32,831 bases of DNA, from positions 1-32,831 of the forward strand of contig JBBMKC010231620.1 in NCBI GenBank assembly GCA_037834085.1, written 5' to 3'. Under the pieces are notes generated by a model, which saw only the letters and a list, made by a program, of their open reading frames with translations, searched no databases and was not told where the DNA came from. Source of the DNA: Bipalium vagum (Eukaryota). A program made the translations under genes and the position numbers. Within the stretch, counting starts at the first letter, position 1; each line of letters starts with the position of its first letter. Of the stretch, positions 1 to 27,225 are shown one piece after another.

Positions 1-92
1 ATAAAGTATTTTGTAGTATGTGCCTTCAATTTTGAAATATAAGTAAAATTCATAAAAAATTAGGGGGGTGAACTTACTTATTTCGCCTACTG
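1..92. mobile_element. Terminus (TIR) of a Tc1-like DNA transposon, continuing left of the window
   Basis: Ends ...GGGGGGTGAACTTACTTATTTCGCCTACTG followed by TA (93-94). The reverse complement TA|CAGTAGGCGAAATAAGTAAG resembles Tc1 TIRs (CAGT start, TA target site). Confidence 0.5.
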
Positions 93-373
93 TATAGATA
101 AAAATAGTGAAAAAATATTAGGAAGATTTTATGAGAATGAGTTGCAACGACCTAAAATTTTTAGAAAATGAATAAAATTAAATATTTATTTTTTAAAATT
201 TTTATTTTATTTTTGAAGACTATGGTCTAAATTGAAGAACTATTTAGTGTTTTATAACTTTAAATATTAGTTCATTAAATATTTGAAATCCATATAAAAT
301 TATTATTTATCATAACATTAATAAATCTTACAATATAATTAAAAATATTAAATTAAAATTAAAATTTTGAAAC

Positions 374-481
374 TGAAATTAAAACAAAAACGGTATACGA
401 TTTTAGCGATTCACTTTTTCATTTTTTTGAAACTCAAAAAATGAAACCTCAAAATCGTATACCGTTTTTGTTTTAATTTCA
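374..481. repeat. Nested foldback: 31-bp perfect inverted repeat enclosing a second ~13-bp inverted repeat
   Basis: 374-404 TGAAATTAAAACAAAAACGGTATACGATTTT is the exact reverse complement of 451-481. Inner arms 417-430 TTTCATTTTTTTGA and 434-446 TCAAAAAATGAAA pair with one bulge. Confidence 0.95.
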
Positions 482-586
482 AAGATAAGGATGCGTAAAA
501 CTATTTACCTAGAAAAATCTTTATCATTAATATATAATTTTAAACTTTTACATATTTGATCTAGACCAAAATTAAATGCTCTTAAA

Positions 587-965
587 TTAAAGTCCAGCTC
601 CAACTGTAACTTCTATGAAAGATTTTGGTTTCAGCCTTTCCATTTCCATTTCTAACTTCTTTTGTTCTAATTCTATCTTTTCTTTATTATTTTTTTGAGC
701 CTCTTTTGATTTTTGAACTGCTGTTGCAACTCCTCTAGCAACTCACCCGCTGCTCCTAAACATGGTATTAACGGAAGAACCCCACAAGATTTTTGTTCTT
801 CAGCTTGCACACCTTCAGTGTTTACAGCTGCGCTGTGATCTTCGATTTTTTCTTTTTCGTTTATTATACTTTTAGATAAATAATATTTTTTTCGTTAAAA
901 GTTATATATTTTGGTTTTCCTATTTCTATAATATTTTTTAATTTGTCCTCAGTGATTTCGGTCAT
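587..965 (-). pseudogene. Frameshifted Polinton/adintovirus small virion protein gene (cupiennin-like/protein X type)
   Basis: Manual translation across two frameshifts: MTEITEDKLKNIIEIGKPKYITFNE/KYYLSKSIINEKEKIEDH...EEQKSCGVLPLIPCLGAAG/VARGVATAVQKSKEAQKNNKEKIELEQKKLEMEMERLKPKSFIEVTVGAGL*. This matches the 'GGFLPLIP..AAG..GGVA.AV' amphipathic segment, coiled coil and terminal GxGL pattern of Maverick/adintovirus proteins. Confidence 0.65.
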
Positions 966-1054
966 GATTTTTTATTAAAAAATTGAAATTTTTTTAGAAA
1001 AATACATAACATAAAAATAAAAATATATATAAAAAACTAAAATTTAACTAAATA

Positions 1055-1575
1055 AATAGTTTATTTAATTAACAAATATGCTCCTAATTTTAACAAAAAT
1101 AAATGGATTTAATCCCATTTCATTTTTTCGATACCACTAAGTAAAGAATCTTCATCATTTATAATCTGATAATGTGGTCGTCTTTCATTTTTCAAATTTT
1201 GGGATAAATCATCCGCTGCTAAAATTTGATCACTGAGTTCCCAACAATATCCCCTATTATACTCCACAAAAGAATCATTATTTTAAATTTGATCGTTGGA
1301 TCCATTTTCTTGAATTTCGATTTTCGATGAAGAAAGAATTGTTGTTTTTCTCGATAAAGAAAGTCTTTCTCTTAAATCAAGGTCAGTTTTTAAATAAGTA
1401 TTGAGTTGTTTCTCAATACTACAAATTGACTCCATTGTTAAATTACAAATTATAAGACCTGGAAATAAGGAACATAGATGAAAAAATCGAATGAACCGCT
1501 TACATGTTTGTCTACATAATCCAAGCTGAGAAGACATAATTTTAGAAACACTGCACTTATTTTATAATTTTTAAT
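1055..1575 (-). pseudogene. Degenerate ORF with HTH-like N-terminal part, probably a Polinton accessory gene
   Basis: The frame of ORF 1283..1537 continues past two isolated stops: ..SSQLGLCRQTCKRFIRFFHLCSLFPGLIICNLTMESICSIEKQLNTYLKTDLDLRERL...QI*NNDSFVEYNRGYCWELSDQILAADDL...KMKWD*IHLFLLKLGAYLLIK*. It is co-oriented with, and lies between, two Polinton-type genes. Confidence 0.4.
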
Positions 1576-2003
1576 ATGCGGACGAAAAGACAAGTAATCG
1601 TAAAAAGAGAAAACCCGGCAACCAAACCATCAGTCATAGAGGAGGTCATTGAAATACCAGACTCACCGGCAGAAGGATAAACTGAAAATCAAAGAATGGA
1701 CACTTCTACGGTGTAGAGCGATGGATCAGAGAGCGAGTTGGAGGAAAATAGTGAGGAAGAATGTAACCACGGATTTCACGAGGAAAGTGGCAATCCAGGG
1801 ATCAACAAGTCATCAAAAGGCAAAGAGAAAACGAGAAGTAACACCAATCACCCAGATGGGAGGACATGATAGCAGAAGAAGATATTATAGTATTGATAGA
1901 GCCGATTGCGTTGGACGCATCAGAGGAAGAGGAAAGCAAAAGGCAACCACTAACATCAAGCAGTGAAGAGCTAAGAAGAAGTCAGTTCCGTTTGAATAAA
2001 TAA
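1576..2003 (+). mobile_element. Purine-rich, higher-GC degenerate coding fragment, likely the acidic C-terminal tail of an LTR-retrotransposon pol
   Basis: Sharp composition change. Interrupted reading ..VIEEVIEIPDSPAEG*..SDGSESELEENSEEE../..DASEEEESKRQPLTSSSEELRRSQFRLNK*. An 'LRRS' motif after an acidic linker is typical of integrase tails. Confidence 0.35.
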
Positions 2004-2890
2004 TAAAGATATTGTTTTATAATTGTTAATATACTGTGAAGAAATATGAAATGAATATTTTCTCCATGAATTTCTTAGTTCAGTTTGATTTTTCTCAATA
2101 CAATCAATCATATAAACCTTTATTCTTAATCCATTTTCTTTTCCAAATTTAGAAATAGTATTTATTTTCATTGGTATATCTTCATCATTATATTTATAGT
2201 TATATTCCTATTCTTTATACCAGCTTACTTTTTTTTATGATGAGGAATTTGGTATTGCATAAAATAAGAAATGATTGACCATATAAAACATTTTTTATCT
2301 CTGTTCTGAATGTTGATTATAATGAGATTAGAATGAGATTGAAAAGGTAAAGGAGTAAATTTTCTTACTCTTAAAACTTTTATTTCATCAATTGAAAGAG
2401 TTAAATGAGAAAAACTATAGATTGTCCACCTAGAATTTTTTAATATTTGTCAAGTGTTTTCCGTTTCTTCTTCTAAATTCTCTTTAATATTTTCTGTTTC
2501 TAGTTTGATGTTATTTATTGTTAATACTTAATCAGATTGTTAATCAGATATTTCATATATTTTTATCTTCATTAAATTTATATTTTTCGTGTTTTTGTAT
2601 AGATGTTATTTTTAGACAAAATATATTTTTAGGCCTATCCACCAGGGCCTGTTTTTTATTAAAAAATTTTGGGGTCATATCCTCTAAGATTGGTTTTACA
2701 TACAAATCATCTTCCTCTTGATTACTACTGAAATAAAAGCTCTTGAATGACATCTTTAATTTTTGCAAAATATTTGAATATATTAGATTTATTATTTGTT
2801 GATGTAGAAAAAAATCATTAAAAAGATCAAACAAACATCTATGCTGTCATTTATTAATAAAAATTATTTCAATTTTTGGATTTTTCCATT
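1990..2890 (-). pseudogene. N-terminal region of Polinton/Maverick (adintovirus-like) protein-primed DNA polymerase B, truncated and frameshifted
   Basis: From ~2440 down: KNSRWTIYSFSHLTLSIDEIKVLRVRKFTPLPF...IINIQNRDKKCFIWSIISY.../VSWYKE*EYNYKYNDEDIPMKINTISKFGKENGLRIKVY...KTISLLFI. These follow in order the conserved pPolB N-terminal motifs GSGW..L.L.I, YIPLP, INI.N.D..CF.W, RVS.Y, FP....I.KFE..N...INVY and LLL. ORFs 2553..2834 and 1971..2171 are pieces of it. Confidence 0.8.
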
Positions 2891-4139
2891 TTTTAAAATA
2901 AAATTTGTCTACTCAGAATGTGTTTTATGGTCCAGAGGAATTCGAATTCGGTGAAATTTACTGTATACTTATTTAGATAGATATAGCAAACTCTGTCTTG
3001 AATTCAAAACAAGTTTGTTCAAATTTTATATTAATAAATTTATTTTTTAAAAATAGTCAACTTTGTTTTGTTTTCAAAACAATTTGTTTTAACTGATAAT
3101 ATTGTGGAGACTATCACCATCCAACTAATCAATTCTGTCAAATTCAAAACATTGCACATTGATCCTTTGATAAAAATTTTATTATGCATGAAAGATATAA
3201 TTTTGTGTGATTTTATTTATCGTTTTTATTGTAAAATTTAAAATCAGTAGATACCTAAAATCTTTCTTTCTTATGGTGAAATGGTAAGCAAATAAAATAT
3301 TAATTACAATAATAAAAATAATATATAAATTATAAAAATTAATCTCATAATTATAATTAATCAGTAACATAAAGTTACTAAAATAATTATTTCACTAAAA
3401 ATTTTAAAAAAGCTTTTTAAAAATTGATTTCTAGTAAAAAATTTAAATAAGATCTAAAAATAGTAACATTAAATAATATAAGTAAGTACTGAAGCATTTC
3501 AGTGCAAAAATACATAAAAATACTCCGAAAGAGAACACAAAAATATCACTAAAAGTGGAGCCAAAGAGGCAAGGAGAATTCAAAAAGATGAACTTAAATA
3601 AATCAAGTGGACAAACATCGAATAACAAATCAAGAAAACGATAGAAATTCAGAAGACGGGAAAATCAATAAACGAAAAAATAATTTGAATCAAAATTAAA
3701 TAAACCAGAAGACATCGAAGCGGAAGCAACAAAGATTTTAGAAAAAGTCAAATCGAAAATTGTTCGATCATCAAATAAATAGTAATTTTATTAATACAAA
3801 GGATATTATTAAACCTTAACAAGTAACTTTCGCTCGAAAATCAATAACTCCTCACATTCTAATGTTGTGCTCGCTTTGCTCACACAAATTTATCTCTATT
3901 GAATCAAAACCCTACAATAAAACTTTAACAGTACCCAAACTGAATCAAAACAATCACGATAAAACCTAATTACACACTTCAAAACAATCTTTACACTCGT
4001 CACAAAAATCATAATCAGAATCGTTCAAATGTCTAAAAAATCAAGATTGTTCAACTGACTGAAAATCAAAAATCAAGCACAAATAAATAATTCAAATCAC
4101 AAATTCAAAGCCAAATGATTAAAATGAAATTTAGATTAA

Positions 4140-4980
4140 TAATAAAAATAAAGGAAACAAAGCAAAATTGAAAATATCCTCATCAGGAGCGACAAGGGGT
4201 CCCTGGGTCGTTCTCTAGGTCTTTTTCAAGTCACCTAGAAATTCCTAAATTCTCGGCGTCCCCATCGTAAATCCTTTTGCATCGTCTGTGGCATAATAAA
4301 GAAAATGTCTTTCTGAAACATCCTGAAATGTCTTCAGATATTAAAAAATTTTCGACGGCAAATCTTTTTTTTTTGACTGGGCGTTTTCTAGGTCTGATCA
4401 TACTAAACTTTGCTTGTAATTGTTTGATTAGCTTTTAAAAACTCAACATGAAAAATTCCACTAAACGCTCATCAAAAGTATTTTTAGGATGAATTTCTCG
4501 TTTCGGGCTTATTTCAGACTTAGACCCTTTGAGTTTCCATCGACTCATTCTTTTGGAAATGGTATAGTAAACCCATTTTTCAAAGACTTGGATTTTGTCA
4601 AAAAACGCCTCAACATTATGCCTTGCAAGAAATGAACTGCAAATTAATAATCGTGCTTGGATGTTCTTCATCACGTTAATATTATCATTTTTAATTTTTA
4701 AGTATTTCAAAATGAATTTCAGTGATGTTTTTTAACTGTAGGAATTCAGTTTGCTAAAGTGATGCAACAATTGTTATGAATTTTTAAAAATTTTTAATGA
4801 GACTTGATTTGTTGGTCAAAAGTGATGAAATTAATAAGTTAAATGAAAACAAGGGAAAGTATGAATTGGAAGAAATGTAACATTTCTTGGTGGTGTAGTC
4901 CTATTTATGTAGAATCCAAGTTTTTTATATTGATAGAGGAAAGACATCAAATAAATAAATTGATGATAACATGCTATTTG
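4140..4980 (-). pseudogene. Degenerate ORF of unknown, probably mobile-element origin, with two basic AT-hook-like motifs
   Basis: The frame of ORF 4435..4710 continues both ways through scattered stops. Downstream it reads IRPRKRPVKKKRF and KRPRERPRDP, resembling decayed KRPRGRP. Confidence 0.3.
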
Positions 4981-6217
4981 TGGAGATATTGAAACTTATG
5001 AGAAGTTGTTCGATAAGTGCGGGTTGTGATACTATTGTTTCAAAGTATATAATCTTACACAAATATTTATAATAAAATAACAAAAATATTATTTTAAAAT
5101 ATTATAATTAGTCATATGGCTAAAATAAAATAAATATTTATTTTTCTTTTTTTCATTCCCGGATTACAGGGTTTTAGATACTCAATATTGATGCAATAAA
5201 TATAGTGAGATGAATGACGTGAAATTGGTTAGTAGGTTGTTCTCAGTAGAATGCTTTTGTGCTGAGCCTATAATTAAAGCTCCCAGCGCTCCATTGGTTA
5301 ATTGAAAATGGGAGACGAAGGAAAATAAATGAAGAAAAATGAATGGAGAATTAATTAATTTTCCCGTTCAATTGAATGTGTTCGAGGTCATATTTAATGG
5401 AGTATCGAAGCTGCCAGATCCAGAAAGTTTTAAGAGAAATTGTGAGTAGAAGATTTTAAAAAGTTTTTTGAGTAAATAATTTTGAAATTTTCGAGAATTT
5501 CGAAAAAAGTTTTGAAGACGAATCTCGAAAAAATAAATAAATCTTTTATTTGAGATTTATCAAAAAATTTTTCATTTTTTATTTGTTAGCTTACTTAATC
5601 ATTTATGTTACCTTCGCGTCGAACCAACTATTATTGGTTTAAAAATTTGAGTCAGATTAGATCAAGTAAAAGAGAGGCTAATATTTAGTTAATATATCAA
5701 TAAATATTAACATATTCATTTCAAAACTGAAAAAAGTGGATAACATTTTAGATATATTTTTAAAATTTATAGATTAAAAATAATCAATATAGCACCTATA
5801 AAACATATTTAAATAAAAAATGAATATAAAATCTTATTTATTCAATTTTATTAAAAAAAGCATTATTTTTTAACCTTTACAAATTATTAATTGGATATCA
5901 TTATATAATATATAATATAATACTACAGTACTATTATTTATCACTAGTACTATTATTTATTATCACTGTAACAGATTAATATTACTAATTATAATAGATT
6001 TTAGTATTTTATTTATATCATAACTTCTCTTAATTAAATATATGTTAAAAGCAAATTATAGAAACAGAATCATCATCCATATTTTTGATTAAATATTGGT
6101 TCATCTGAGAAAAACGAAAAGTTTTTTAAAAATATTTAAGAACACTATTATAATACTCATCAGACGAATAAAACATATTGATTCTATCAATGTTCATTGA
6201 ATCTCAAGTCTGCTCTT

Positions 6218-9200
6218 TCAATCCAATGCTATTTTGAAAGGAGAACCTTTAATTGGACAACCATTCCAATTGATTGAGATTGTATATTCTCCTTTTTCTG
6301 TAGGATTATATGAGCACTTTATTAATCGAGTGTCTTTTGGGTTCTTCTGCACTTCTACTCTGAAAGCTTCTGAAAAGACTCAATATAAAAGTAACCATAA
6401 AAAATTACGTGGTCTCACCTTTAGGACCTTTCACTTGAACCCGTAGTTTTCCGATGCCTGCATGTGTAGTGTCAATTGTAAAATAGCTGTGAAAATTTTT
6501 CAAATGATTTGATTTTAATCCTGGACCAAATACTTTTATATTTTCAAGGTTTTGCTTATCGGTAAAAAACGGGTGGAATGGACTACCTGGTACATGTATA
6601 TTTTCATACATTATATTAAGTTCATGTCGACCATTTAACACTGGCTGTAAATTGAATTGATACTGATTATCACTATTATTTCACAGGTAAAAAAAGTTAA
6701 ATTATCGGAGATAAAATACTTTTGTTTTACGAGATCACATTCAATGGGTTTCAAGTCTGGCCCTATACATGTAACTGAAAGCATCATTTCATTGTTTTGT
6801 GACACAGTTGATTGATCTTTAAACACATTATTTAGGTCGACTGTTATAATATTAATTTCTCCAATAAAACCATGATTAAGACCATCTCCTTGACATTTTG
6901 CACCCTGAGCAGGATCGATGTCCCTTATATTTAATGGAAAGGGACTACCTTGTACAACCTTATCTCCACAGGAAACATGTAACAAATATTGACCTATAAT
7001 GAAATAGTAAATACCTTCATGAATCTTAAATGGGACCTGGAATTTTTATTTGATATGAACATTCATATGTTCCATTTAAAAGCTCCTTAATAGTCACGGG
7101 AATCTTTTCACATTCAGATTTGATGTCTTGAATACTCAATAGTAAATCATTTCCCTCAATATTAAGAGTATCAATGAAGAATTTCGCAATTTCTCCCACC
7201 CAAGCTCCTTTAAGACCGCGACCTTTTAAAATGACCTATTAAATAAATTTATTATTTACTTTTAATAATTTGTAAGTAATATTGAAAAAAATAGTAATGA
7301 TAAATAATATAAAATAATTATTAATAATATTATTATTAGTTAATGAGTTTTTTGAATAAGAATATAAATAAAAATCTTTGGTTCGATTTGGTTCCTCATT
7401 CTCCACATTAATATTCTCCAAAATCCTATCCAAGTGCATAACGTAGGACCTAATTGTTTTGACAAGCATTCTTGCATATCTGTTGTCATAAATGTGGAAC
7501 AAATCGACTTAATTTTTTTATTATAATGATATCCAGCATGTTCTGTACAGTTTTTTTGATAAAATTAATTACAGTAGATAATTTTTGTCTGTCTTTTAAA
7601 ATTGTTATTTTTTCGAGTTTCTCACAAATTTCCTATGGTCATACACTTCCTCCTAACCAAACAGGTTCTTCTTACCAAAAAACTCTATGATTCAAGTATA
7701 AATAGTATGATTGTATGGAGGTTCATTTCTATATGCTACATGTAGGTGATAAATAATGTTCTTTTCTGTCTTCAGAAATATAAAGCAAATAACAATACTG
7801 TTAATTTGTTCGAATTCCATATGAAACAAAATAAATAATTAAATAAAATTTATTTCTATAAAAATCTATTCTTTCATAAAAATCAATAATTAAAACAATT
7901 TTAATTATTGATTTTATTGAATTATTAGAATTATGTAAAATCTTTATAATTCCTTATCTCTTCAGCCTTTCCACATTACTTTCAATCTGCTTGCCATCAC
8001 TGTCCTGTAGGATGTATCTTCGACCATGCACCTTTGTAATCACTTTTTATGGGCCTTCGAAGCTTCCTTGATCCTTATTCCGACATTCGGCCTTGACCCA
8101 CACTTTTTCTCCAACATTGAAGCTTCTTCTGGTCTCTGCTGTATCTATGAAATTCCCTTTGATTATGTCACTCGTGTGTCGTTCCAATTTGTTCTTGCTA
8201 TTCTTGTACCAAACACAAATCCAGCTGGATTTGCATTTATGGATATTTGCCATGTGGGGTTTATAGAAAATTCGATCTCTTTGAGTATGTCAGCCTAATC
8301 TCTAATTTTCTCTCTTCTAATGTTGTGTTCATTAGGTCTCTCATCGTCTGAAATTGTTTTTCAATTTGACCATTTGTGTTGTGATGGTAAGAAGTTCAAA
8401 AACATATCTTAATATTTAGTTTTCTGGGAATCCTCTCATGCTTCTTGATTCGTAAACTTCCAGTAGTCCACATGCAGTCATCTAGGAAATACAAATTTCA
8501 AGATCCATTCGTTTTATAAAATTTTTTGAATTGTGTTTTCGTTCCAATTGCAACTAGAACTATATACTTGCTTCGTTTATCGATTATTCCAAAAACAGAC
8601 CTCTTACGACTCACCGTTTCTCTCAAAGGGTCACATATGTCCGCGTTTATGTCGGCGAATATCTCAGTGTCTTGAACCGCTATTATTTCCTCTTTCGTCT
8701 TCGATGTCAGAACTTTATGTATCTGACAAGCTCTGCCTGACTGAACTACCTGTTTAATCTTAGTTCTAATATTTTTGATTCTGCGTCTATCTTCTAGGTA
8801 TCGGTATACTTTTTCTGTCTCAACTTGTACTAACTGATTTTGAGACTCTCTCTCTTTTCACTCATCCAATCGCCCGTATAATCATCGTCTACTGTCATCA
8901 CATTTAATCTTTTCGTTTGCATCTTTTCCAACTTTACATCCTCGTGTTTTGTCTAGTATGGTATGTATGTCGAGCACTCTCTTCTTGACAACATATCTGC
9001 AAGCAAATTAGCTCTGCTTTTCAATATTCCATTTGTATATCTAAACTACTTAGATAATTCCGTACGCTATCACCATTTCCAGCCCATTTTCATCTATTTG
9101 TGCCAACAATACTCCTATTGGTCCAAAACTGGCGTCGGTCAACAGATCAAAGGCATATTTCAAGGTGAATAGCATTTCTTAATTATGCCGTTTTCATGCA

Positions 9201-12200
9201 AACTCTGAATAGCTTCTTTGATTTTAGCTTCCAGATTCATCGGCTGTCTAAAAGGTTTGACATTAATTGGTTTACCTTAGGTTAAAATGTGATTTTTCTT
9301 CAGATGAGTGCTCTTCGAACTCATGTATAATTTTCCCTAAGGCGGAATCTACCTTGATCCAAAATGTCTTCAGCGCTCTTTGTTTTCTCTCGCCTAACTT
9401 TAACGTCCTACCAAATCTTGCTTCAATCCCACACACATATTCTCAGTCATAATCCCCATCATGATGTAATACTATTCTGCTTTGACTTTGATGAAAAACA
9501 AAATTGTTTCTGTAACTCAATACCTCCGATGAAATCTGGTGCAACCGATTTCAACACAATTAATTGAACCTTTGGTCGTCTGTGGTTAATTTGTGCTTCA
9601 ATCTCGAGCTTACCCAACGTCTCCAGTCTGGTATCGTTTGAGCATCGCAAATTGTCATCACATCTCTCTAATCCCGTTCCTCTCAACTGCATTGCAATCC
9701 TCTTACACATCACGTTGATTCGTGCCCGGTGTCCAATAAAAAATCAGATGTCTATCCCTGCAATGTTATTGTAACTCTCAGCCTCCCCTGTATCTTTTCA
9801 TTGTCTATTTTATCGTTCTGCCTCTCATCACTTATTGCCACCACGTTTTTAAACTCCTTTTTAACAAAAGTCTCCTTTAGAAAACGATATACTTTCCCTG
9901 TCACCTCATCCTCATTTCCTTCTCTCGGCCTCCTGGGATATTTCACTTAACGTGTTTAATTGATGGCTCCCACTATATCCCCGTCTAGCGGAGCCCTGGC
10001 ATTTGGATAGCTGTTATTGTCATCCTCTTCCATTGGATCATCTGCTTCTATTCCATTTATCCTGGACATCAGTGATTTTTCTCTGTCGACTATGTCTTCT
10101 CTAAATCTCCCACCAGTCTTATGGTTCTTCCTGTCATATAAAATTCTAAAGCAATCTGACCTGTAATGTCCACTTCGTCCGCAGTATATAAACATCGCCT
10201 CTGCATAATATGGCTAATGTGGCCGATTTTTCCACAGGCAGAATATCGTGGAGCATTTCTTTTTTGAAAATTCCTAATCATATGACCTCGAACAATAAAC
10301 ATTGCAAAATGGAGAACTTAAGAAAATTTGCCGGTTACATAGAAGTCTAACAGTGGGAATTATAGCTGAAAAACATAACGATTTTCAGGAATTGAAAGTC
10401 AGTATATCTACCACAAACGTAAACTGAACATTGGAATGCTGAGGATTTATGTAGTTATTAAAAATCATGGAGGCTACTTTGATGAATTTTATATATGATA
10501 TAAAATAAATATTTTTTCTTCTTAGTTCGAATAAATATGAAAAGTATTGTTCAATTTTATAAATAAATTAACTATAAAGCATTTTTTATAAACAAAGTGT
10601 TAAATGTTATGTTATATTTAAAATGCGAGTACCTGCTTAATACTTTTGATCGGTAGTATAGATCCAAAGTTTGAGAGATCACGCAGCTAATTTTTGAACC
10701 TCTCTAATTTTATGCAAATACAATTTTAGCATCGTACCCGTTATTATTAGCACGTCGTTTGATGAGAATTTTCATGTTTTAAATGATTTAGATATTATTT
10801 TCCCAACCAAGAATATAAATACAAATCGAAAATGAGCTCTATAAATAGAGAAAAAATCTTAGTTTATAGCAATTTTTCATAAACCAAACAGATGTTTATA
10901 TCTACTTATCCATTTCTTTCGTGATTAAACTGTAACAGTAAAATAAAGAAATCCTCATTTTTGTCACCTTGTTACACCATTTTCATTAGCTGAATTTAAT
11001 TAATTTTAAACAGTTAGCTGGAAAACTCACCCAATTTTATTTATTTATTTTGTAAAATTATTTATATTTAGTGAATTTAAACAAACAAAGATTGTTTATT
11101 CATTAACCCGAAACCTAAAATTTAAGGTTATTCGAAAAAAATTTGTACAAACAAGAAGAAACATCCTTTTTGTTATTACTTTCATTGATCAACAGTGATT
11201 TCAAGGCAAGCATAAAAAATAGTGACTTACAGATTGAAATGTGCTGATTTTGAATGTGACATTTGTTTTGCTGCATCACATCTAGATATTTTGAAATTTA
11301 ACTTTTGTGATATTTTATATTTACAATTTGATCATGTTTTCGCAATATTTTATTATTGGTAACATTTCTATTTTTCAAAATACGTTACATTTTTTTTATA
11401 AAATTTATTTAATAAAAATAATTTTGATTTTATTTCTTCAGGAAACAGTAGATCTGCATGATCTTTGTCAGATGAGCTCTTCACTTATGTAAAATTTTGC
11501 TTCAGCCTTCTTCGCCCAGCCTTGTCGACATCGGGGAATATCACAGTTGTTTGTTTCATTAGATATGCAACTGTTTCGCTTATGTAAAAATAATTCAAAA
11601 CTTTTGTGGATCTTTTATGACTAGACGGAAGTGTAAGGAAATAATCTCTGCAGTTAAATAGTGTGATTATGCTTACTTTGGTTGCCAGATTGGTGATCAA
11701 GACAAAAGTACTGTAAGACAAGTTTTAATCGATTGAGTGATTGGTCTCGCGAAACAATAATCTCCATGCCATTTGCAGTTCCCATGATATTGCGTGAGCC
11801 ACAAAATCATTTCAATAATTGCTACCTTTGTTTGACGAAAGTACAAGGATATTCTGAAAATAATAAAAAAATATTAAATATCCAGATCTGAACTCGGCTA
11901 TTATTATTCGGTCGAACTCCAGATATCTTTACCGCCTCTCAAAGAACAGGTCTCTTCGTCAGATGACAGTACTTCTCCAATCCATCAAATAAAGCAAATA
12001 TCAATGGAATATACATGTATGTGGAGATCGGAAGGTTATTGGACTGCTTTTGGGATTGCAAGGTGGATTTACTAAGTAATGTTGTTTCCTCTGCTTATTT
12101 GAACAGTAGAGATACTGCAGACCACTAAAATAAAAGGCAATGGTCTCCGAGTTGTTCATTTGAACAGAGATCTAATAATGTTCGATACCTACTTTTGGTT

Positions 12201-15200
12201 TATGGCATTTCATATCAAATTAAGAATAATGAAGAGCTATGTGAAAGCTCTAGACAATAACAAAGCAGCATTCAAGTACTTGAGAATGAAGTCTCCACAA
12301 ATCAGTGGTGCTAAAATAGCTGAAAGCATTTTTATAAGACCCCAAATAAGGAAAATGGTGTATGATTCAGATTTTGCAAGAAGCATGAAAATAAAATTAA
12401 GCGCTTGGAAAGCTTTTCAATTATTGTGTGACAACTTTCTTGGCTGAAAATTATAAACATTTGGTGGAAAATCTATTGGACACGTATAACACTCTTGGAT
12501 ACAGAATGTCCTTGAAAATGCATTTTTTGCACTCACATATATATCACTTTCCTCGTAATATGGGGATGTCAGCGACGAACATGATGAACGGTTTCACCAA
12601 GACATTTCTCATATGAAAAAACGGTACCAAGGAAAGTGGAATTCTTCAGTGATGACAGACTACTGTTGGAGTATTCGGCGTGAAACAGATGATGAAAATT
12701 ATAGGGCGATCAAAAAGGACTTCTTTTCTTTGAGTTTATATTAGTTATGTCTTTTATGCCTGTTTTTAGTTATGTTACTTATGATTTACAAATATACATT
12801 TGTGGTTATGGTCTCCATATTTTTTATTTTATTAAAATACAATAATTTAATTATCTCAAAATCTGAATGTGATATGAGAATTGCAATGATAAATTTGGAA
12901 CCAGATTGAGAAAATGTATAGGAAACCACTACGCTTTTTATTTCCCCAGAAAACAAGTTTAAAACTGTTATTTAGTGTTTTCAACAATTTTAACTATAAT
13001 AAAAAGTATAATAGAATATAATACATAAATAAATATAAGTATAAATAAAAATAAATAAACTTGTGATATTGGACTTTCAATTAATTCTGGTGAGGGATCA
13101 ATTTTACTTTCAGCTCTCACTTTGATTCTTCCCAAAGTCCGACTATTCCAGTAAACCACAATTTCAAAGAAATCTGGTTCCTTACATTCTATCCAGAAGG
13201 TCCAAATGGTTTTTGTAATTGTTGTCCAATGTTTTATCTGTTAAGAATTATTAATGAAGCTACAAAATATGAAACTATATTGTATATAAACATTTGTATT
13301 TTCATTACTGGACTCCACAAAAGCTGACATTCTCCCATTTCCGGCTAAAGAATAAGAAAAATCAATTTTTGTTTTTCTTCCTACTGAGATAAGGAGAATG
13401 TTGTCAAATATGTTTTGATGACTCACACATTGTATCTAAATAATAATAATAATTATTATTATTATGATAATAATAATTGTCAAAATGAGTAGTCATTCAA
13501 CCTAAAATAAATTAAAACAATAAAACTATCATTTTTATATATTTTTTAAAATATTAGGTTTATGCATTGAAAGTGAGTCGTTTTGAAAAATTTTTTTATT
13601 TAATAAATAAGATAAATATTAAGTAAACATAAGACGTAAAAGATAATTTATTCAAAATATTTTCCATCGTTAATAATAACTTTCTCCCATGTTTCAAGAA
13701 GCTGATGAATTCCTTGATAAAAGAAATCTGTATCTTTGGTGGCTATCCTATCAGTGATCCAGTTTACAGTTTCCTCGAAGGATTAGAAGCACTTCTCGGA
13801 AAGTGAGTGTGTCATCGACCGAAACAGATGGTAGCCAGAAGGGGCGCAGTCTGATGAATAAGCTGCGTGGGGTAGCACTTCCCATCGAAGCAATTCTAAA
13901 GTTTCCTGGATTCATTTGTTGACGTGTGACTGGGCGTCGTCATGGAGAAAAACTATTTTATACCGCATTTTCTCATATTCTGGCTCTTTCTTTGGCAATG
14001 TCTGGCTCAGATATATTAATTGCTCTCGATATAAAAGTATTAATTTTCTTAATTGAGAATATTTAATATTTTGAAATGACAATTGTTTAATCTTGAATGT
14101 TATTATAAAACAAAATATTCCTTTAAAAATATTTCTATTAACCATTTTAATGCCAGCTTAACCCATTTCATTCCAGAATTCAAGAGGGCGAAGAAATTTG
14201 ATTTACTTGGTGTATAATAGGTTGATTATGTATAATAGGACCTATTAAAACTATGTATAAGTTTCATAAAAATTAAAAAAAATTGAACTGAAATTTAGAA
14301 GAAAAGAATATGCAAAGTAAAATTCTATCAATGTACAATTAAAATATAATGTCTTTGCAGTGATTTTAATTAATTTATTTTTCGTAAAATCTTCAAATAA
14401 CGTATAAATTTCACTATAAAGGGACATCTCCAAATGGGGCTTATGGAATGAAATGGGTTAATAGTAAATAATTTTAATGTTTTCTGAAATTATTGTTTTT
14501 GTAAGATTAATAATAATGAAATCCTACCGATGTAGGATCTGTAGCCTCAATCTTGAAAGGACTTCCTTGAAGTGGTTTATCATTCCATAGAATATCAATT
14601 TCATATAAGCCAATCTCTTTCGGATAATATTCAACTTCATAACGTCCTTGAACAGATTCAGGTTTAATAAGACATTTGGCTAGAGATTTTGGACCTATCA
14701 CATCAACTGTTAATTTACCCTTTTCTCTTCTTGGATCGACAATAAACATAGCTCTTCTTCCAACTTCAGCTTCCACTAATCCTTCACCATATACAACTGG
14801 AGTGACATTGTCATGCATGCTATTTGTTTCGTTATTAATACTGAGTAACATAGATTTTGTAGATTCTTCATTAGAGGTTAAAGGAGCATCTAATTATAAA
14901 AAACTAAGTTAAATCAATAATATTCATACATTCATAACTCACTAAAATTCTGAACATTAAAAAAAAATAATTAATATATTAAGTCACTTACCTTTTAAGA
15001 ACCCCAATGAAGTGTTTTAAAATGTTAATATTAAACAATTTTTCAAAATTATTATATATATATTCGAACTATTTCGGCCAAAGCCATCAAAGTAGATCTG
15101 AGAATTAATGTTTCACCAGAAACCACCTGTTAGCTAGCTATTAGTCGCATTTTCAAGTGAGAAAACCTTTTGTCTCTGCTATTAATCAGTAAAGAAGTTT

Positions 15201-18200
15201 GGCATGGGCAAAAGAACATCTAAGTTGGAGTGTAGAAGATTGGGAAAAAGTATTATGGTCAGATGAGTCATCTTGCATGTTACGTTTTCAGTACTTGAAC
15301 TGTGTTTGGAGACTTCTAAATGAACGCTGTTCTGCTTCCTGTATGACAGGAAAGTAAAAAAAATGGTTTTGGAATGTTTTGCAGCACATGTTGGAAATCT
15401 TGGTAGAATTCACGGAATAATGGATAAAGAAAAATATCGTCAAATATGAATTAGGCAAATGATACCTTCATTAAAAAATTGTTCCCAGGTGATCATTGTT
15501 TGTTTAGGCATAACAATGATCCGAAGCACAAAGCGAAAAATATTTACAAAACAAAAATATTAAAAATTTAGACTGGTCATCTCAAAGTCAGGATTTAAAT
15601 CCTATTGAAAATTTATGGAAAAACAAGTGCCAGTTAAATATTCAACAGATGAAAATGGTTTATTTAAATTTTGTGCGTTCGATGGAAAAATTTAAACCAG
15701 AATTCCTCATGAATCTTGTCGAGAGCGTGCTTGGCAGATGCCAAGCCGTAATAGACAATGACGGCCTGCTAACGAAATATTAACTTTTTAATTATTAATG
15801 AATGTTTTAAGAAAAGTTATCTTAATTTAATAGTGATCGGAATTTTTGTGCGTATTTTAAATAAATACATACATAAATAACAGCTAAGCACAGACAGAAA
15901 TTGAATACTCTGTATAATCCTATAAAGCACCAAAATCTATGTACAATATTAAAAATAAAATATTATTTATTTTTATTAATCTTGTACAAGTGAACTCTAG
16001 GAAATATAAAAATATGAAATCTTAACATAATTTTTTATTAAAATTACGATATTTATAATAACATTTAAGGTTTGAATCACTAATCATATTTTCGAATTAA
16101 AAGATTAATAAATATAATTTATGGAAAAGGGGTAAATATTATTTAAATAAATTTAATGTGAATTAAAATTTACTTATTTTAATAAATTAATATATTCTAA
16201 ATAATAATATCATTATTAAAAAAATATGTCTAGAGTAGAGAAAAATAAATAGAAATAAAGAATTATTTGACTAGTACGATGGTGGTTTGAAAAATTTTGA
16301 AAGTGAAAAGAATAAAATAACATTGATTGTGCAAAAATCACATTATTTTTTCCACAAACTTTTTTATTTTCTTCAACATGTTTAGTCCAACACTTTACTA
16401 GAAATTGGATACCCTGGTGTAGTGACTTTTATCAAGGCTTGCAAAATAGTTATATACAGCATCATTTACTTCTTGATTGTCAAAAACCTTTTGGTCTAAA
16501 AAACATTCACCTCAAATTCCAGCATTAAATTTCACTTATAGATCATTGTGAAACAAAAAGATAAATATTTCTTCAAAAGTGGAATAAAAACATTACCATA
16601 AAGGTGATAAAAAATTATTGTACAAAATGGTGCTTGTACATGTTAATACAAATATATTTTTTAAAAAATCTATCTTTGATATTTATAATAAAAAATGCAC
16701 GAACTTCCGGACAGCCCAATAAAATCGAATTATATTTACAATGATCAAAAATTATTTTAATTAACCAGAAATGAACATAACACAGACTAATACTAAATAA
16801 CAGTAAATGAAGTGAATTCGCAGTTGTTTCCCTGACAAACGCTCTTTAAAAACCACTTAATCCGACTTAATCAAGTAATATTTTTAAAAAAATTAAAATT
16901 CACCTTGCGACATGACGTTTATTGATTCTATAATTTCTTCTACCGGATGCTGCAAGTCTTGTGAAAATTATATCAATATTTTTTTAGGAAATATTTTGTC
17001 AATTAAGTACTTTTATCTACTTCATCGTATCGATCAAAGTCAAACTCATTAATATCTGATACAAAACATTATCAGTGTGAAATCCACAAAATATTACCGT
17101 ACTTTTTTGTTTGAATTCTAAAGAGCCTGACACTTCGACTTCAAAAACACTGACTTCAAATAATGGAAATCCAAAGTGAAAAGTTATGATAATCATGAAA
17201 ACTTACTTTTTTCTTTATTATAACATCCTTCAATTAGATATTGACCAGCAAATGGTAGTTTTATAGAAAATATCACGTCTCCTTTTTTATCCCTCACAGA
17301 TTTTACAACTGGAACTGGAGAATAAATTCCCATATCTTCACTTCCTATTGCAGTCACATCAACATGACCGGACCCGGAATTCAAGCAGTTATCTAAACCT
17401 AGTTATCTAAAACAGTTAATTCATCATTTTTACAGGTTATGGTTATCGTTTGTCCAACAGTTGGCTTAATTCCCGAATCAAAGTCGGGATCAATGGAAAT
17501 AATCTTTACCATTTTCCCATCATAAGCATTAAATTCAAGAGGACATTTATCAAAAATAACATCTTGATAGTAAGCATATAGTGTATGTATGCCTATAATG
17601 GCAGGGGTAAAATCGCATCTTAGCTGTCCAATTTTATTATTCTTTTCTTCACCATAAAGCAACATATCAACTTTCGCCTTATCTGGACATTTGATCCATG
17701 CTTTGAGAAATTCTGAAGGTGCTCCGCCTAATTCAAATATAAATGATGCTTTTACTCCTAATGAGGTAAGAAATTTATCTGTGGTAAAAGAATGGATCAA
17801 CTTCCATCTAGTAGTATTAATAACATATACACGTGGTCTGGGACCTGATCAAAATCATTCTTGTGAGCAAGTTAATCTCAAAGGCAAACCTGTGGTTGAT
17901 TCATTATTAATTAGAAATTGAATTTCATAACAACCATATTGAGGAGGAGTGAAAAAGAATTGACATCCTTTCTCAGGAAGATTTTTTAAAGTACTTTTTA
18001 CCAAAACATTGGGGTTTATGGAATTATCAATTGCCGACAATAGATGAGCTTGTACAGAGACCTTAACAAGTCTGGTGTATTAATTCTAAATATTTATAAA
18101 GGACTAACATATTCAATAATTGCCTGATGCATTTTCATCTCCAGCAGTAATTCTACTGATTCTAATGACCAATATATGGGCTTCATATGAACTTTTTCTT

Positions 18201-20393: not shown

Positions 20394-20549
20394 AAGCTAT
20401 ACATGTTATACATGTTCCTAATCATTAGACACATGGAAAAAAATATTCAATATTAAATTGATATTAATTCCATAAATTCGATATGAAAATGAAAATTAAT
20501 TCTCTTGTATTAAATCATGAAATAAGTTGAATTGACTTGGATTTCGGAT

Positions 20550-23500
20550 ATGACGGACGGGTCAATTGCAAATAATGCAAAAAATATTATGATTAATCTA
20601 AAAACTCTGTCAAAGAGCATTGGATTAGCTCAATCAAATATTTTTCGCTGTAAATCAACTTTAAAATCCATTGAAGATGAACTAGTCTATCTTACAGTTC
20701 ATAATAATAATACCAATACTAACAATAAGGATTCGAAAAAGCCGTCCGGTTATTATCGTGGTACTGACGTATGTCAGAACCAGTATAATATGGTGGAGAT
20801 TGAAGCGGAACCGGGGAAAAGTAACGATTATCCACAGAGCACTGTGTTGACAGATTATCCAAACAAAACCGTGAAATCTAAGAGTCTTTCGAAAAATATG
20901 GTACATTTGTATTTTTGAAAGAAAATCATAAAACCGGAAAAAGATTTGATAAATTGAATAAATTTATAAAAAAAATTACTGTTTAATATTAAAATAATTA
21001 ATAGCAATATTTCATCTAGAGTTCTCAAAATCATTTCTGCAATAAAACCCTTCCAAAAAACACAAATATCTCTAATGTCGGTGGTGAGTTGAATAATTTA
21101 ATGAGAGCTCAACAACGATTAACGTGTCAAATAGAACAGCTTAAATGTGAAATTGGAGAAAAGTCCAGCACCATGAACAGTTGCGTAAAGAACAAGTTTG
21201 TTATGTTATGAAATTGGTCACTTTTCTTAACACAATGTGACTTTAGCCAATTTTTCAATTGTAAATTGAAAGAGATTGATTGTGATATTAATCTTTTGAA
21301 AGTAGATATTGATAAAATCAAACGAGATCTAACGGTTACTTTTATCAAAAGTCGAGGCTATAGTCCGTACAGTCATGATTCGTGTGCCGATGATAATGGG
21401 ACTATTCCCATGTCTGTCAAACAGTCAGGTAATCGAGGACATCTCATAGAACATCATTATGGGTACCAGGATGTTTGCACTCCAGATAATTCTTTGATGT
21501 CATTCCCAAAACCTAAGCAGTCAAAAGCGGGTAGTTTAATGTTGAACATCAAAGATCCTAGAGGTTGTTCTGCAGTATAGACAACTTTTATTTTGCATTT
21601 TTTTCCTAATTATTACTTTCAGACCTTTGAAGACTTAATGAAAAAAAATAAAGTCGACATAGACTGTAACGTTAATAATTGTCGAAATAATCAAAATATT
21701 TGTGAAGTATTAGTAAGTAATTTATTATTTCTCGTGACTTAATTTAAAGAATTAGTTGATCATAAAATGTAAATGTCTTAAAGTTGCTTGAACCTTTTAC
21801 TGTGAACCTTCCCGAAAATTTTATAGAATTTTTTTTCAAATCTATCGGTTTTTATTTTCATATGAGAAAGAAAAACGTTTAAAACTGGCTAAAAGTTAAT
21901 ATTTTAAATACCACTATATAAGAATTTCTTAAATCTGTTATCTTACTATCATCATGAAAAAACCTCATCAAATGATATGTTTTACTTAGTCTACCAAATT
22001 TGTTAAGCTAAGAATATGCCAGAAATTAATAAATAATTTGTCATCCCTGGTTGTTTATAAGAAATTACTGATATTTGACGAATTTCGTCACAAACGAAAT
22101 TTAACTTATTAATTCATCAAAGACAATTGTTTATTTGTCTTTTCTTTTCAAAAAACTTTGGTATTAAAATAATGAATTTTTTGGTATCACAAAATTTATT
22201 CGAAGTTCAATAAATTGTACTAAATTGTTTGCTTCTAAAACATGATCAATATGAAACGCTGATTACAGCGGACTTCGGTTAATACGTTGTTGTTGGGATT
22301 CCAAAAAATCATCGTGATAAGCAACATATCGTGTCGACAGAAGTGACATGTATTACGTAATATGGAAATAAGAAATAAATGAAACAATCGATTTTCAAAC
22401 ATTTATTAATTTAAAGTCCGCAATATCTATATATTGGAGTTTATATTTATCACCGTAGTAACTCTAAATGTCACATAAGTTTATTGACTCGGCAGGAACT
22501 AAAAACTGGATAAAAACAGATACCAAATCTAACAGATTTTCCCGATCTAGTTCCTTCGGATTTTTATTTACTTCGCCCAGTACAAAATTCTTTAGATGAA
22601 AGACTGTTTAATTCAAATGAAGGTATTCATACTCATTTGATCCAAGGACAAGAAGTTTCACGAAAATGCAGTCTTAGAAATACCTTGTAGATGACAGCTA
22701 TCGATCAAAATGAGCTATACATTGCTAATTGAAAATTTTTTTTATAAATAAAATATCTGATTTTTATCTAAAAAATACTTTTTAGATTTATATTGAAATC
22801 TAAATATCTTTCATTAAATTCAATCGATTGAAATTTCTATTTATATAATATTAAAATAAGTCTAGGTTTTGTTTTTTATATTTTAAAATATAGATTTAGC
22901 AAATGCCGCTTCATTTGAAGTTAAGAATCAAAATTGTACTTTTAATGGCCAAAATCCAACTCAATTAATTAAATACCGAATTTGGGAAAACCTCACCAAG
23001 TGAAAGTGCTATAAGAGACTTTTCATCGTTTTTCTGAAATTGGTTCAGTCAAAGATCTTGAACGTTCTGGAAGACCAAGGCTGATCACTGAAAATGAAGT
23101 TCAGAGAATGAGTGAAGTCATTGAAAGTGACCCACGATGCAGTGTTCGATCTGTTGCAACCACCTGCTCCATTTCGCGAACAACAACCCATCGAATTATG
23201 AGATAACAGTTATCATTGAAACTCTTTAAGGTCTATTTCACACAGGAATTACATGAACAGGATTTGCAAGACAGAGTTGAGATGTGCAAAACCCCGGTCC
23301 CAATGTTAGAAAATGTGGATATTCAGGAAAATATTTTTCTTTTCAGATAAAGCAACGTTTTACCTAAAAAGATAAGTAAATAAACATAACGTCAGATATT
23401 GGTCTGAAAGTAATCCACATTTTACTTTTGAAACTGCTAGAAAATCTCAGAAGGTAAATGTTTGGTGTGCTTTGTCAAAAAATAAAATTATCGGTCCGTA

Positions 23501-25383
23501 TTTCTTTGAAGATGAGACTGTTAATGGCCAAAATTATCTATTAATGCTTCAAGACTATTTTATGTTTGAAGTGAGGAAAATGTACAAAGTACGGTCTCTG
23601 GTATTTTAGCAAGATGGAGCTCCTGCGCATTTTTCAACAAATGTACGACGGTATCTTGACGCTCATTTTCCGAACAGGAGGATTGGAAGAGGTGGTTCAA
23701 TTTGATGAGCTCAATGTTCACCAGATTTAACTCCTCTTGACTTCTATTTAAAGAATAAGATATAAAAATCTAAAATCAAAAATATTGACGACTTGAAAAC
23801 AAAAATCACCGAAGAAATAAAAAGTTTTACCACAGAAGCTTTGAATAGCGTATTTTTAAATATTGTAAAAAGGATGAGTTTATGTATATCAGTGAATGGT
23901 AGTCATTTCGAAAAATTGCGATAAATATTTTTATATAAAATAAAAATTGAAAGATTTGTCTTTAATTTTATAAAGCAAGTAATTAAATATCTCAATCTGC
24001 TTAAGAAATATTTAAGTTTACTTTCGGTGGGGACTTATGGGACACCCTGTATAATATTTTAAGAATAAACTTTTTCAGTTCTGCCAGTCAGATTGTTTTT
24101 TACATAAAATATTTTAAATGCAACAGTTTTGAGTGTCGAGTAGTTCTTTAATTCCACAGAAATCTTCGTATCGACAGTATATATTAAATATGCCTACATT
24201 ATAATCGAAAACGTTTGTTCCAAAACCTTTTTTCATAAATTGAATTTAATGAAATTCAACCTAAAATTACATAACAGTTAAATCATGTTTTGACACTATT
24301 TTAGAAAATTCCAAAAATTTTATTTTTAAAAAATAAATATTTAAGACATGAATTCATAATTTTGAAAAGATGGTTAAAAAATTATATTATTTTAAATTTT
24401 GTATTCAACTCTTGTTCTAGATACTGAAATAAAGAAAAAGATTCCATATACGTTTATTCTTATTTGTACGTGTAAATTTCCAAACTAGTTATCCTTATTT
24501 ACTGTACAGATTAATTATCTTAATGTGTATTTAAAGTTATTAATGAGTACTCCATGTCTTTTTAAATTCAGTTTGTCTTTCAAAGTTCAAATTATTTTAA
24601 TTTTTATATGAGGTTTTTATTATTTACAAAGAGATTCATTTTGGTTTTCTTATAGAATTCAAAGCAGATAAATCCAGTTTTGCAGGATTTTGCTTGCTTA
24701 ACTAATCAAATCAAAAACCTTCGTAGGATGGCGGAAAATATATTTAATGTACAGAATTCAAATAATGCTGAAAAACCTCGTATAAACGATCAATCATTTG
24801 ATCAAAACATATCCACAAAAAGTATTCACTGTCAAGATGATATCAATAAATCGGCCATGTCCAAACCAATTGCAGAGGTTTGTCTCCTGCATCTGATATA
24901 TGTTTGTACATAACAATTTAGACAACATTGTCAATGTTTAACCAGTCCAGTTATAGGTCACTGCTTAATCAGGTCAATAATACAAAAACCGAATTAAATT
25001 CTGAATGCACCTCCATATCAGATAGCGACACAACCTGTTTCTTTAATAACGAAGATCAACTTTCAACTCAGAATTTGCTTCGAAGATGTTCGCATCCTAA
25101 AGGAAAATCAAAACTTGAAAATCATTTAACTCATGAAGAACTTCATAATTATATAAAAAGAAAATGTTATAACGATAATGGAGATCACCCAATTCATCGA
25201 AGGCAATCAATACCCCAAAGTAAACTATATCAGAAACGTTTCCAGGAACAAGAAGTAAATGGCTATTGTAAATCTGACGATTTTTGCATTTGTCATTTTA
25301 AAAACGAAACTCATTCCAACAAATTAATCTGTCCTGAGTGTAATCAGCAATTACCAATCATTCAAAATGAGTTCTGTACTTGA
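20550..25383 (+). CDS. Hypothetical ~542 aa protein with several predicted coiled-coil segments, 6 exons
   Basis: Exons 20550-20900, 21020-21195, 21247-21574, 21623-21712, 24656-24877, 24922-25383 join in frame with GT-AG introns (1629 nt including TGA). Heptad-like stretches ELNNLMRAQQRLTCQIEQLKCEI and KLKEIDCDINLLKVDIDKIKRDL. No recognisable domain. Confidence 0.75.
22945..24049 (+). mobile_element. Tc1/mariner DD41D (rosa/VS-type) transposon, 5'-truncated, in an intron
   Basis: FSEIGSVKDLERSGRPR, FSDKATF, VNKHNVRYWS, KVNVWCAL..IIGPYFF, QDGAPAH...SPDLTPLDF with exactly 41 codons between the second and third D, GSHFEKLR*. Ends GGGACACCCTG|TA. Confidence 0.9.
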
Positions 25384-26075
25384 TAATAATTGTAACTATG
25401 ATTTTTAGAGTTCCATGAATTAACGATAGTCAATAATTATGAAATTACTTAATTTTGAGCATATCTTAAATAAAGTAATTTTACTTCATTCTTTTATTTT
25501 TATTGTTCATTATTGAAAGAACTGCGCGAAAACTTATCACAACTATGTTGCAGTGATTAGTTTTAATTTATAGGAACTTTGATTTTTCCTTAAGTATTTT
25601 TCTAAAGTTCCATTAATATTTTGAAGACATTGTCATGTTGTAAATCCAGTTACTCAAAGGTGACTGATGTATATATTGAGATTTGCAGGAAACTCAAATC
25701 AGAAAGAAAGAAAGTAGTTGGTACAGCGGATAAGAAAGATAAAAGTTGGAACACTTGAACAGGTATTAATGGATATAAAATGATAAATATTCAATTGTAC
25801 TCGTAATAAAAATTACGAATATTTTCTTTTACGTTGTATTTCTAATATTATACTAAATTTAATGAAACTAGACTTTATTTTGTAAAGAAAAATCTTCCGG
25901 AATATTGAACAGAACATTTTTATTTTTAAATCACACAAGAGTCCATAAAGGGTAAAATATTTAATTGTTTGCAGTGTACTATATTACTACTTAAATTTCT
26001 AAAAGTTGAATATTTACCAATAATAAAAGTATTTTTTAATTTTTAATGATATGTACAACATAAACCCTTTTAGTT

Positions 26076-26990
26076 ATGGGGTCGAGAAAAACATTAATGG
26101 TCGAAGAAGTCGTACAACTTAAAATATACAAAGAAATTAACTTTTCAAATCGGAAATTATTTAGATTGGTCAAAAAGTTTCATAAAAAACTTGTAACTAC
26201 GGTCTCAGTAAAGGACTAAAGGGTAACTCAAAACTCACTTCTTATCAGAAATATAAGATCAAATATGAAGCGATACAGGCTAGATTAAGTGCACTACAAA
26301 TAAAGAATAAACTTTTATTAATAGGTTAAACAGCACATTACTAATTTATTGTGTCAAGACAAGAATATTAAATGGAAGAAAATGATAAGAAAGCCGAAGC
26401 TAACAAAGAAGTACAAAAATGCTAGACTTGATTGGGCTAGGAAATAGAATGGGGTAAAGTAATTTTTTCTGACGACAAAAAAAGGACCTGATACATATGG
26501 TTATTATTGACATAATTTGCATGATCAAGAAGTGCATAGATTTGTTAGGTTGGCTAAAGGCACAAAACTCGATAATAATAATAACAATGGTCATAAAGAA
26601 ATAAAAGTCTCGCTGTCGAGGCTATGATGTGAGGTTAATATTTCTTTTGTTTTTGGAGAATAGGGAAATAAACTCCGTCATCTGAGTAATTAATTCCTTT
26701 GTCTAATCTTGTCTCGGAGTTTCCAGTTTCCAGATGAAAGAAAGTTACAGTAGTCCCAGTAAATATTTGATTTTTATGCAAACAATGATAATGCAAGAGG
26801 ATTTACCAAGGGAATCCACCGAGTTTGGGAATCCCTAGGTGTTCTGCAAGAACATAAAGAAAAAAGATGTTTTAATTAGTTTTTTGGATAATAATGCAAA
26901 TGAAAATTTTATATTTCAACAATCTGTATTTCCAAAATAACAAAAATGTTGTTTTCAAAGAGCAAATAACTTTACTTGAATGGCCTGCCT
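26076..26990 (+). mobile_element. Decayed Tc3-like transposon interrupted by an unrelated ~250-bp insert
   Basis: N-terminal HTH-like MGSRKTLMVEEVVQLKIYKEINFSNR; KVIFSDDKK-GPDTYGYY*H (cf. FSDEKKFNLDGPDG..YYW); ENFIFQQ; ITLLEWPA. Confidence 0.7.
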
Positions 26991-27225
26991 GAAATCCGGT
27001 TATCAACTCCTACATGTTTGAAACAATTAATTATAATCGAATTCTGTATATTAATCCACACCGAAGAAATCCATGCTACCGCATGTTTAACAGTAATTGT
27101 TTGCAAATGTTTCAATACGTTTTCATTTATCTCACTTACTGTCAGCAGGTAATTCAATAAAAGTTGACGATACCGAAGCTTGAAATTTTAGAAGTGTTCC
27201 AAAACATATGGACGGCATTGTATTT
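26990..27225 (-). mobile_element. pogo/Tigger (DDE_1) transposase fragment
   Basis: NFKLRYRQLLLNYLL...ITVKHAVAWISSVWINIQNSIIINCFKHVG, the typical C-terminal end of the DDE_1 domain. Confidence 0.75.

Follow-up and report, generated by a model that had tools for sequence, protein, structure and literature searches.

The closest described systems are the Alpha adintoviruses, or Polintons, with an OTU-pfam03175 PolB (Starrett et al. 2021, PMC8502044), for which pX-like domains are a described feature and degraded copies are described in many animals. As for vertebrate Mavericks, 96% of 3,511 loci are reported to be degraded, and Polinton ends are described as starting with (AG)3 or (AGT)2 and having a 6-bp TSD (Barreat and Katzourakis 2021, PMC8097293). 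Insertions related to Orthopolintovirales have been reported in flatworms (10.1101/2025.04.19.649669, cited alongside PMC11131425 and 10.1101/2023.08.22.554363). Besides, the TP-vOTU region of preplasmiviricot pPolB is stated to occur also in bidnavirus, PLV/transpoviron, and linear plasmid groups, the bidnavirid vOTU being inactivated (Krupovic et al. 2024, PMC11071308).

We analyzed a window of 32,831 nucleotides, i.e., the whole stretch of DNA, and found that one strand of a locus near its left end carries part of the PolB TP-vOTU region together with a pX-like virion gene (Table 1). The relic looks like an ordinary genomic fossil of a Polinton/Maverick and not a new kind of virus. It is highly probable that an adintovirus-type Polinton/Maverick bearing a virion module and a PolB of presumed Alpha class was once integrated in the germ line, a short way downstream of a filamin gene and in a transposon-rich stretch, and was later deleted or rearranged and decayed. 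This agrees with the original prediction of a decayed virus-like element in an animal host, in that both a PolB N terminus and a pX-like gene were found, as were filamin and USP8 exons.

Like the Alpha adintoviruses as described in PMC8502044, the locus shows a TP-vOTU N terminus, a pX-like gene, a probable adenain directly after pX, a germ-line insertion in an animal, and degradation. Unlike them, it retains only about 13% of polB, has no PLA2 detected ahead of the pX-like part, and holds an unassigned frame and an opposite-strand piece between polB and pX; an integrase, an FtsK/A32 ATPase, penton and hexon genes, and an ITR were not detected in the window. It also resembles the degraded vertebrate Mavericks of PMC8097293 in its stops, frameshifts, insertions, and lack of discernible TIRs, although those loci belong to another host group with another gene set and the likeness is one of description, not of sequence.

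TABLE 1 Positions of the features discussed in the text
Feature	Position	Strand	Basis or remark
Adenain (C5) maturation protease N terminus, tentative	505..579	minus	Matrix ranks; gene order
pX-like (adenovirus protein X-like) virion core gene remnant	587..965	minus	phmmer and shuffle control
Palindrome of 108 nt, adjacent arms	374..481		MITE-like or fold-back
Broken reading frame, 158 codons	1062..1537	minus	Frame test P 0.010; in element by position only
GC-richer acidic coding-like stretch	1576..1985	plus	Adjoins the truncated end of polB
pPolB remnant	1986..2480	minus	Sequence matches; fold of relative P0008
Probable upstream part of polB gene, heavily broken	2481..2890	minus	ATG at 2890; frame test P 0.03
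Broken mariner transposase remnant	about 4731-4231	minus	SETMAR match, E 8e-4
Decayed Ty3/gypsy retrotransposon	about 10300-7950	minus	Weak Integrase_H2C2 match; inside filamin intron

PolB remnant

All motifs on which the original prediction was built occur on the minus strand where it had placed them. A phmmer search with the 2539-2228 frame against 1.84 billion proteins returned 138 hits (best E 1.3e-9); the same frame had no match in Pfam, in PDB sequence and word-index protein searches, or in a scan of viral contigs. Such fossils escape Pfam and word-based searches, yet they are plain to an exhaustive HMMER search. When 25 long hits were scanned, Endonuclease_7 was found in 10, DNA_pol_B_2 in 2, and no family in 10; DNA_pol_B_2 (PF03175) reached E 3e-25 in the relative P0034. 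A profile of the hits matched two pieces in successive frames, 2638-2234 (iE 4e-23) and 2228-1992 (iE 2e-7), with nothing below iE 0.29 elsewhere in the window. As the first frame had seeded this profile, the second served as an independent test; the HHalign values were 99% for the first and 93% (E 3e-7) for the second. The repaired peptide is indeed a match to the N-terminal region of pPolB, as had been predicted. However, the single polB gene proposed to run from 2890 to 1990 is solid only at about 2480-1990; homology is loose as far as about 2640, and the 2846-2556 frame gave no match, the piece upstream of 2480 being probably the earlier part of the same gene.

The fold was deduced from a model of the relative P0008 (pLDDT 82), with residues 164-318 of which the window piece aligns. 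Residues 70-202 of the model resembled the Y-family little-finger-like TP fold (Z 9.2, rmsd 3.1, 113 aligned), and residues 212-355 resembled the OTU fold (Z 6.7, rmsd 3.9, 106 aligned; many OTU rows at 5-6.7), so that both folds of the preplasmiviricot TP-vOTU described in PMC11071308 are present in this relative of the fragment. Against a viral structure library, Drosophila-associated adintovirus 2 ranked first (E 6.7e-29); a Foldseek search of PDB with the model had no match at E 0.001. The remnant corresponds to the last helix and strand of the TP domain, the linker, and the first half of the vOTU protease domain. It keeps the vOTU catalytic Cys and stops before the catalytic His, and a Ser between the last helix and the last strand of TP is predicted, from the placement given in PMC11071308, to be the retained replication-priming residue. 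Unlike preplasmiviricot pPolB, the locus lacks the His-bearing vOTU strand and all polymerase domains: about 163 codons are left, i.e., about 13% of a 1265-residue PolB, with about 87% missing, and neither a 997-position HMM nor the 138 hits match anywhere else in the window, the exonuclease/polymerase core thus being absent from the locus. Judging from its relatives, the PolB would belong to the Alpha (pfam03175) class, although the core is missing here.

TP-vOTU from a non-Polinton source, such as a bidnavirus, a PLV/transpoviron helicase fusion, or a linear plasmid, might also be considered, since those groups too possess it, and the palindrome, lying leftmost in the cluster, might then be a parvovirus-like or plasmid terminus. 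Indeed, the structure matches of P0008 include PolB entries labeled "densovirus/parvoviridae" from bird swabs. However, polinton PolB fragments mislabeled as parvovirus proteins are described in PMC8502044, the relatives extend into Endonuclease_7 and a PF03175 polymerase, and the pX-like neighbor is an adintovirus feature. Besides, the inactivation of the bidnavirid vOTU is not seen here, as the catalytic Cys is kept; the His region is absent. A non-Polinton origin is therefore extremely improbable, and we retain the assignment to a Polinton/adintovirus. In two of the PolB relatives, P0010 and P0132, the latter being an unannotated NCBI planthopper protein, the vOTU region is tandemly duplicated.

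Reading frames and their breaks

Coding character was assessed as the fewest breaks (stops or shifts) in a stretch compared with 500 dinucleotide shuffles. On the minus strand, the test gave P = 0.036 for 965-590, 0.010 for 1537-1065, 0.012 for 2480-1990, and 0.030 for 2890-2481, values that are optimistic because the boundaries were picked post hoc. By comparison, P was 0.032 for the gypsy remnant and 0.056 for the mariner remnant, both broken in a similar way to the Polinton pieces, whereas on either strand of three noncoding control stretches it ranged from 0.15 to 0.95. The polB remnant has stop codons at 2452-2450 and 2210-2208, and its frame is broken near 2230; the pX-like frame is interrupted by frame breaks near 875 and 752 and a stop at 745-743; and the 1537-1062 frame, by internal stops at 1285-1283 and 1111-1109. 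These breaks are unlikely to stem from an assembly error, given that the polB gene is cut short and has in-frame stops as two of the breaks in its core, and that the host USP8 exon stays open for 169 codons. The remnants are too short to bear out the predicted lack of introns. The locus now encodes nothing functional.

pX-like gene and putative adenain

For comparison we used 95 loci, consisting of 14 viral contigs and 80 metagenome contigs (the best 80 of 457) with this PolB, and additionally L016. By tblastn, only the polB piece of the window matched these loci (78-81 of 95). With phmmer run at full sensitivity, the 965-590 frame with X at the breaks found the open reading frame at 18-665 of the metagenome contig L020 as the best of 1054 (E 1.2e-5, 21.4 bits), a score that none of 300 shuffles reached (best 14.9). 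Conversely, when the L020 frame was the query, the unjoined frame 751-527 was the top match in the window (iE 5e-4). The L020 frame itself has a weak match to Adeno_PX (E 0.033, below cut-off) and runs directly into adenain, with PolB on the same contig. By its match to this one homolog, the 965-587 piece is assigned to a pX-like virion gene, in support of the predicted Polinton/adintovirus-type element. L020 thus resembles the locus in having a pX-like part followed by adenain and a PolB of the same family on the same strand, whereas it differs in that the protein similarity is only distant, the contig is largely open-framed, and other genes lie between its pX and PolB. In L020 the pX-like domain and adenain share one open frame, possibly through fusion or a lost stop.

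No PLA2 domain was detected in the pX-like remnant, and scans of viral contigs with this piece and with the L020 frame gave no matches. Membership of 965-587 in a 33-member pX-type family built from L001 was rejected (score -2.1, with shuffles up to 11). The exact GGFLPLIP motif did not hold up as a marker: among 21 viral loci with the DNA pattern, none had a PolB, ATPase, or pX-type match, and mentions of GGFLP in the literature were unrelated listings.

Directly after the pX-like stop begins a piece that had escaped the original prediction and that is cut off near the hairpin; it is probably the N terminus of adenain. A 16-residue matrix from 6 templates, designed after the sequence had been seen, placed its motif at 579-532 first among 65,562 positions, and a score over 30 residues from 3 templates placed it 54th among 65,478; by HMM the piece was not significant. 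The order of pX and then adenain is that of L016 and L020, unlike that of L001.

Middle frame and opposite-strand piece

The middle gene of the original prediction, placed at 1575-1055, is coding-like, but its frame starts at 1537. It had no match in Pfam, NCBIfam, PHROGs, PDB sequence, word-index proteins, or the 95 loci. ESM Atlas searches with its 1537-1286 part and with the 894-676 frame of the pX-like piece returned K-box hits at or below 0.82, which is chance level. We rejected its identity with the conserved gene preceding PLA2X in L008 and L016, as the best rank was 13 and in another frame.

The stretch at 1576-1985 has 44% GC compared with 22-32% in the other pieces and reads best on the plus strand, although its frame test is not significant (P 0.23). 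No match was found in family, 95-locus, or window-internal searches. It is a candidate for an oppositely oriented Polinton gene or for a piece of another mobile element; an origin from the gypsy element was dropped, as neither blastn nor tblastx gave a match to 7950-10300. Because this stretch differs from its neighbors in GC content and strand, the cluster is a mosaic.

Such a mosaic might have arisen by chance, with a lone polB fragment lying in unrelated transposon debris and the pX-like and adenain-like matches being coincidental. The GC-richer piece separating polB from the other frames would fit this, as would the richness of the region in other remnants and the finding that one pX-type family and 26 HMMs from the 95 loci have no significant match to 505-1537. 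It is nevertheless very unlikely: the shuffle control of the pX-like match and the top rank of the unjoined frame in the whole window argue against coincidence, pX lies on the strand of polB, the order of pX and putative adenain is that of L016 and L020, and a short AT-rich spacer (966-1054, 8% GC) separates the genes. We therefore keep to a single degraded Polinton.

Hairpin and search for further Polinton genes

The long hairpin reported in the original prediction is real. Its 52-nt arms are 87% complementary and 4 nt apart, its z score is -9.8, none of 200 shuffles was as stable, and the arms occur once in the window; Rfam gave no match on 1-6000. That it belongs to the ends of the element was, however, not supported. 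A reading as a Polinton TIR was rejected, as no pair of Polinton end motifs exists in 1-6000, where flank repeats were short AT-rich matches only, and no TSD was found at the hairpin. The most plausible interpretation is a MITE-like or fold-back palindrome that may stand at the cut left end.

Of the further Polinton genes that the original prediction proposed to look for, none but the tentative adenain was found. The rve integrase had no match with 246 open reading frames of 14 loci or 26 family HMMs, searches that decayed or deleted copies could escape, and the integrase remnant at 8000-8900 belongs to the gypsy element, not to the Polinton. An 8-sequence HMM of the packaging ATPase reached E 0.32 at best in the window, and a candidate ATPase at 1549-1674 was discarded when its initial E of 0.006 fell to E 8. 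The DJR major capsid and penton gave no match with shallow profiles of 3-7 sequences. Likewise, 26 gene-family profiles from the 95 loci had nothing below iE 0.05 in 1-4300, and no Polinton piece of the window had a match in Pfam, NCBIfam, PHROGs, or PDB sequences. As the searches of the window gave neither an integrase, ATPase, or capsid nor a TIR or TSD, no boundaries are assigned to the element. L001, one of the 14 viral loci with this PolB, has a DJR capsid, an A32 ATPase, and a C5 protease.

Divergence and decay

Divergence was compared over 141 profile columns with 97 relatives, 150 sequences having been aligned and 53 dropped for less than 80% cover. The deviation from consensus that had been predicted is marked: the mean identity of the fragment to the relatives is 27.7%, below that of every member (mean 36.5%, minimum 27.9%), its best match is 36% (member best-hit minimum 41%), and it keeps 16 of 28 conserved columns compared with a member median of 24.

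It had been suggested from this deviation that the relic represents a distinct, undescribed Polinton/adintovirus clade specific to a fast-evolving host, with intact copies elsewhere. The identity values are consistent with such a clade, as are an end branch of 1.42, the longest of 98, a middle frame without a homolog, and word-based searches that gave no close relative. However, when random AT-biased decay, at rates that are an assumption, was applied to 12 intact polB genes, 8%, 10%, and 13% per site yielded identities of 0.292, 0.280, and 0.266 with 2.3, 2.7, and 3.7 stops, and 10% decay left 18 of 28 conserved columns, compared with 0.277, 2 stops, and 16 of 28 in the window. Correcting the best match of 36% by the simulated loss of 0.84 gives about 43%, which is within the member range. 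Deviations at conserved columns are more radical in the fragment than in the members (mean BLOSUM -0.5 versus 0.25), but they number only 8, and 141 columns are too few to define a clade. In a quick tree the fragment was nested within the known family beside P0013 and P0018 (SH-aLRT 90, unstarred), which does not give firm support. Simulated neutral decay of 8-13% per site is therefore enough to account for the stop count as well as the divergence, and a new clade need not be assumed. A distinct clade, for which we found no positive support, is thus distinctly improbable, and a decayed member of the known family is preferred. It is likewise doubtful that the relic stems from a host-specific Polinton/adintovirus lineage of a fast-evolving, short-intron animal, with a pX gene lacking PLA2, an unknown 1537-1062 protein, intact copies elsewhere in the genome, and no close relative in the searched collections.

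Proposed history of the locus

By analogy with known Polintons, the parent element would have integrated via an rve integrase, and its replication would have been protein-primed, starting at the TP serine, with the vOTU protease freeing TP. Its DNA would have been packaged in a double-jelly-roll capsid, with adenain as the maturation protease. Once inserted, the element may have lost most of polB and everything up to the virion module to large deletions or rearrangements, whereby the 5' part of polB would have been brought next to that module, and the palindrome may have cut the left end. Neutral mutation, roughly 8-13% per site, would then have added stops and frameshifts. The locus would thus record a past invasion of an animal lineage by a virion-encoding Polinton; intact copies, if they exist, would add an under-sampled animal to the adintovirus host range. 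The relic points to no new mechanism, since Polintons occur widely in animals, mostly as degraded loci.

Host and genomic neighborhood

The window is AT-rich eukaryotic DNA. Its minus strand carries spliced filamin exons (top PDB match filamin-A, E 1.4e-15), and a USP8-like deubiquitinase exon lies on the plus strand at 31403-32014 (E 1.2e-42); because of these exons, the host is an animal. The filamin frame ends near 6220, and therefore the Polinton relic sits downstream of the gene; a position inside a filamin intron was rejected for the same reason. The divergent filamin gene (about 20250-6220) has very short introns, such as one of 43 nt near 7036-6994, and also multi-kb introns containing transposon remnants. 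Plus-strand open frames at 20526-30361 may be further upstream exons of the USP8-like gene.

Several other remnants surround the relic. We take the gypsy remnant at 10300-7950 to retain zinc knuckle, protease, and integrase motifs and to lack most of RT. Part of the mariner remnant (4232-4282) has a 77% inverted match to 26841-26791. The minus-strand sequence at about 92-60 presumably represents a Tc1-type transposon end after a TA, for which no partner was found within the window, and a plus-strand open frame of 114 codons at 12103-12447, without a Pfam match, is presumably a remnant of a DNA transposase common in invertebrates. Upstream of polB, the plus-strand stretch 3465-4200 is strongly A-rich (49% A, 16 CpG) and coding-like by eye; its frame test was not significant and searches gave no matches, and additional Polinton genes at 3400-4200 were rejected on these grounds. 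In one read run, 69% of the words of 300-4800 are present. Two weaker AT-rich palindromes occur at 7854-7940 and 15940-15988.
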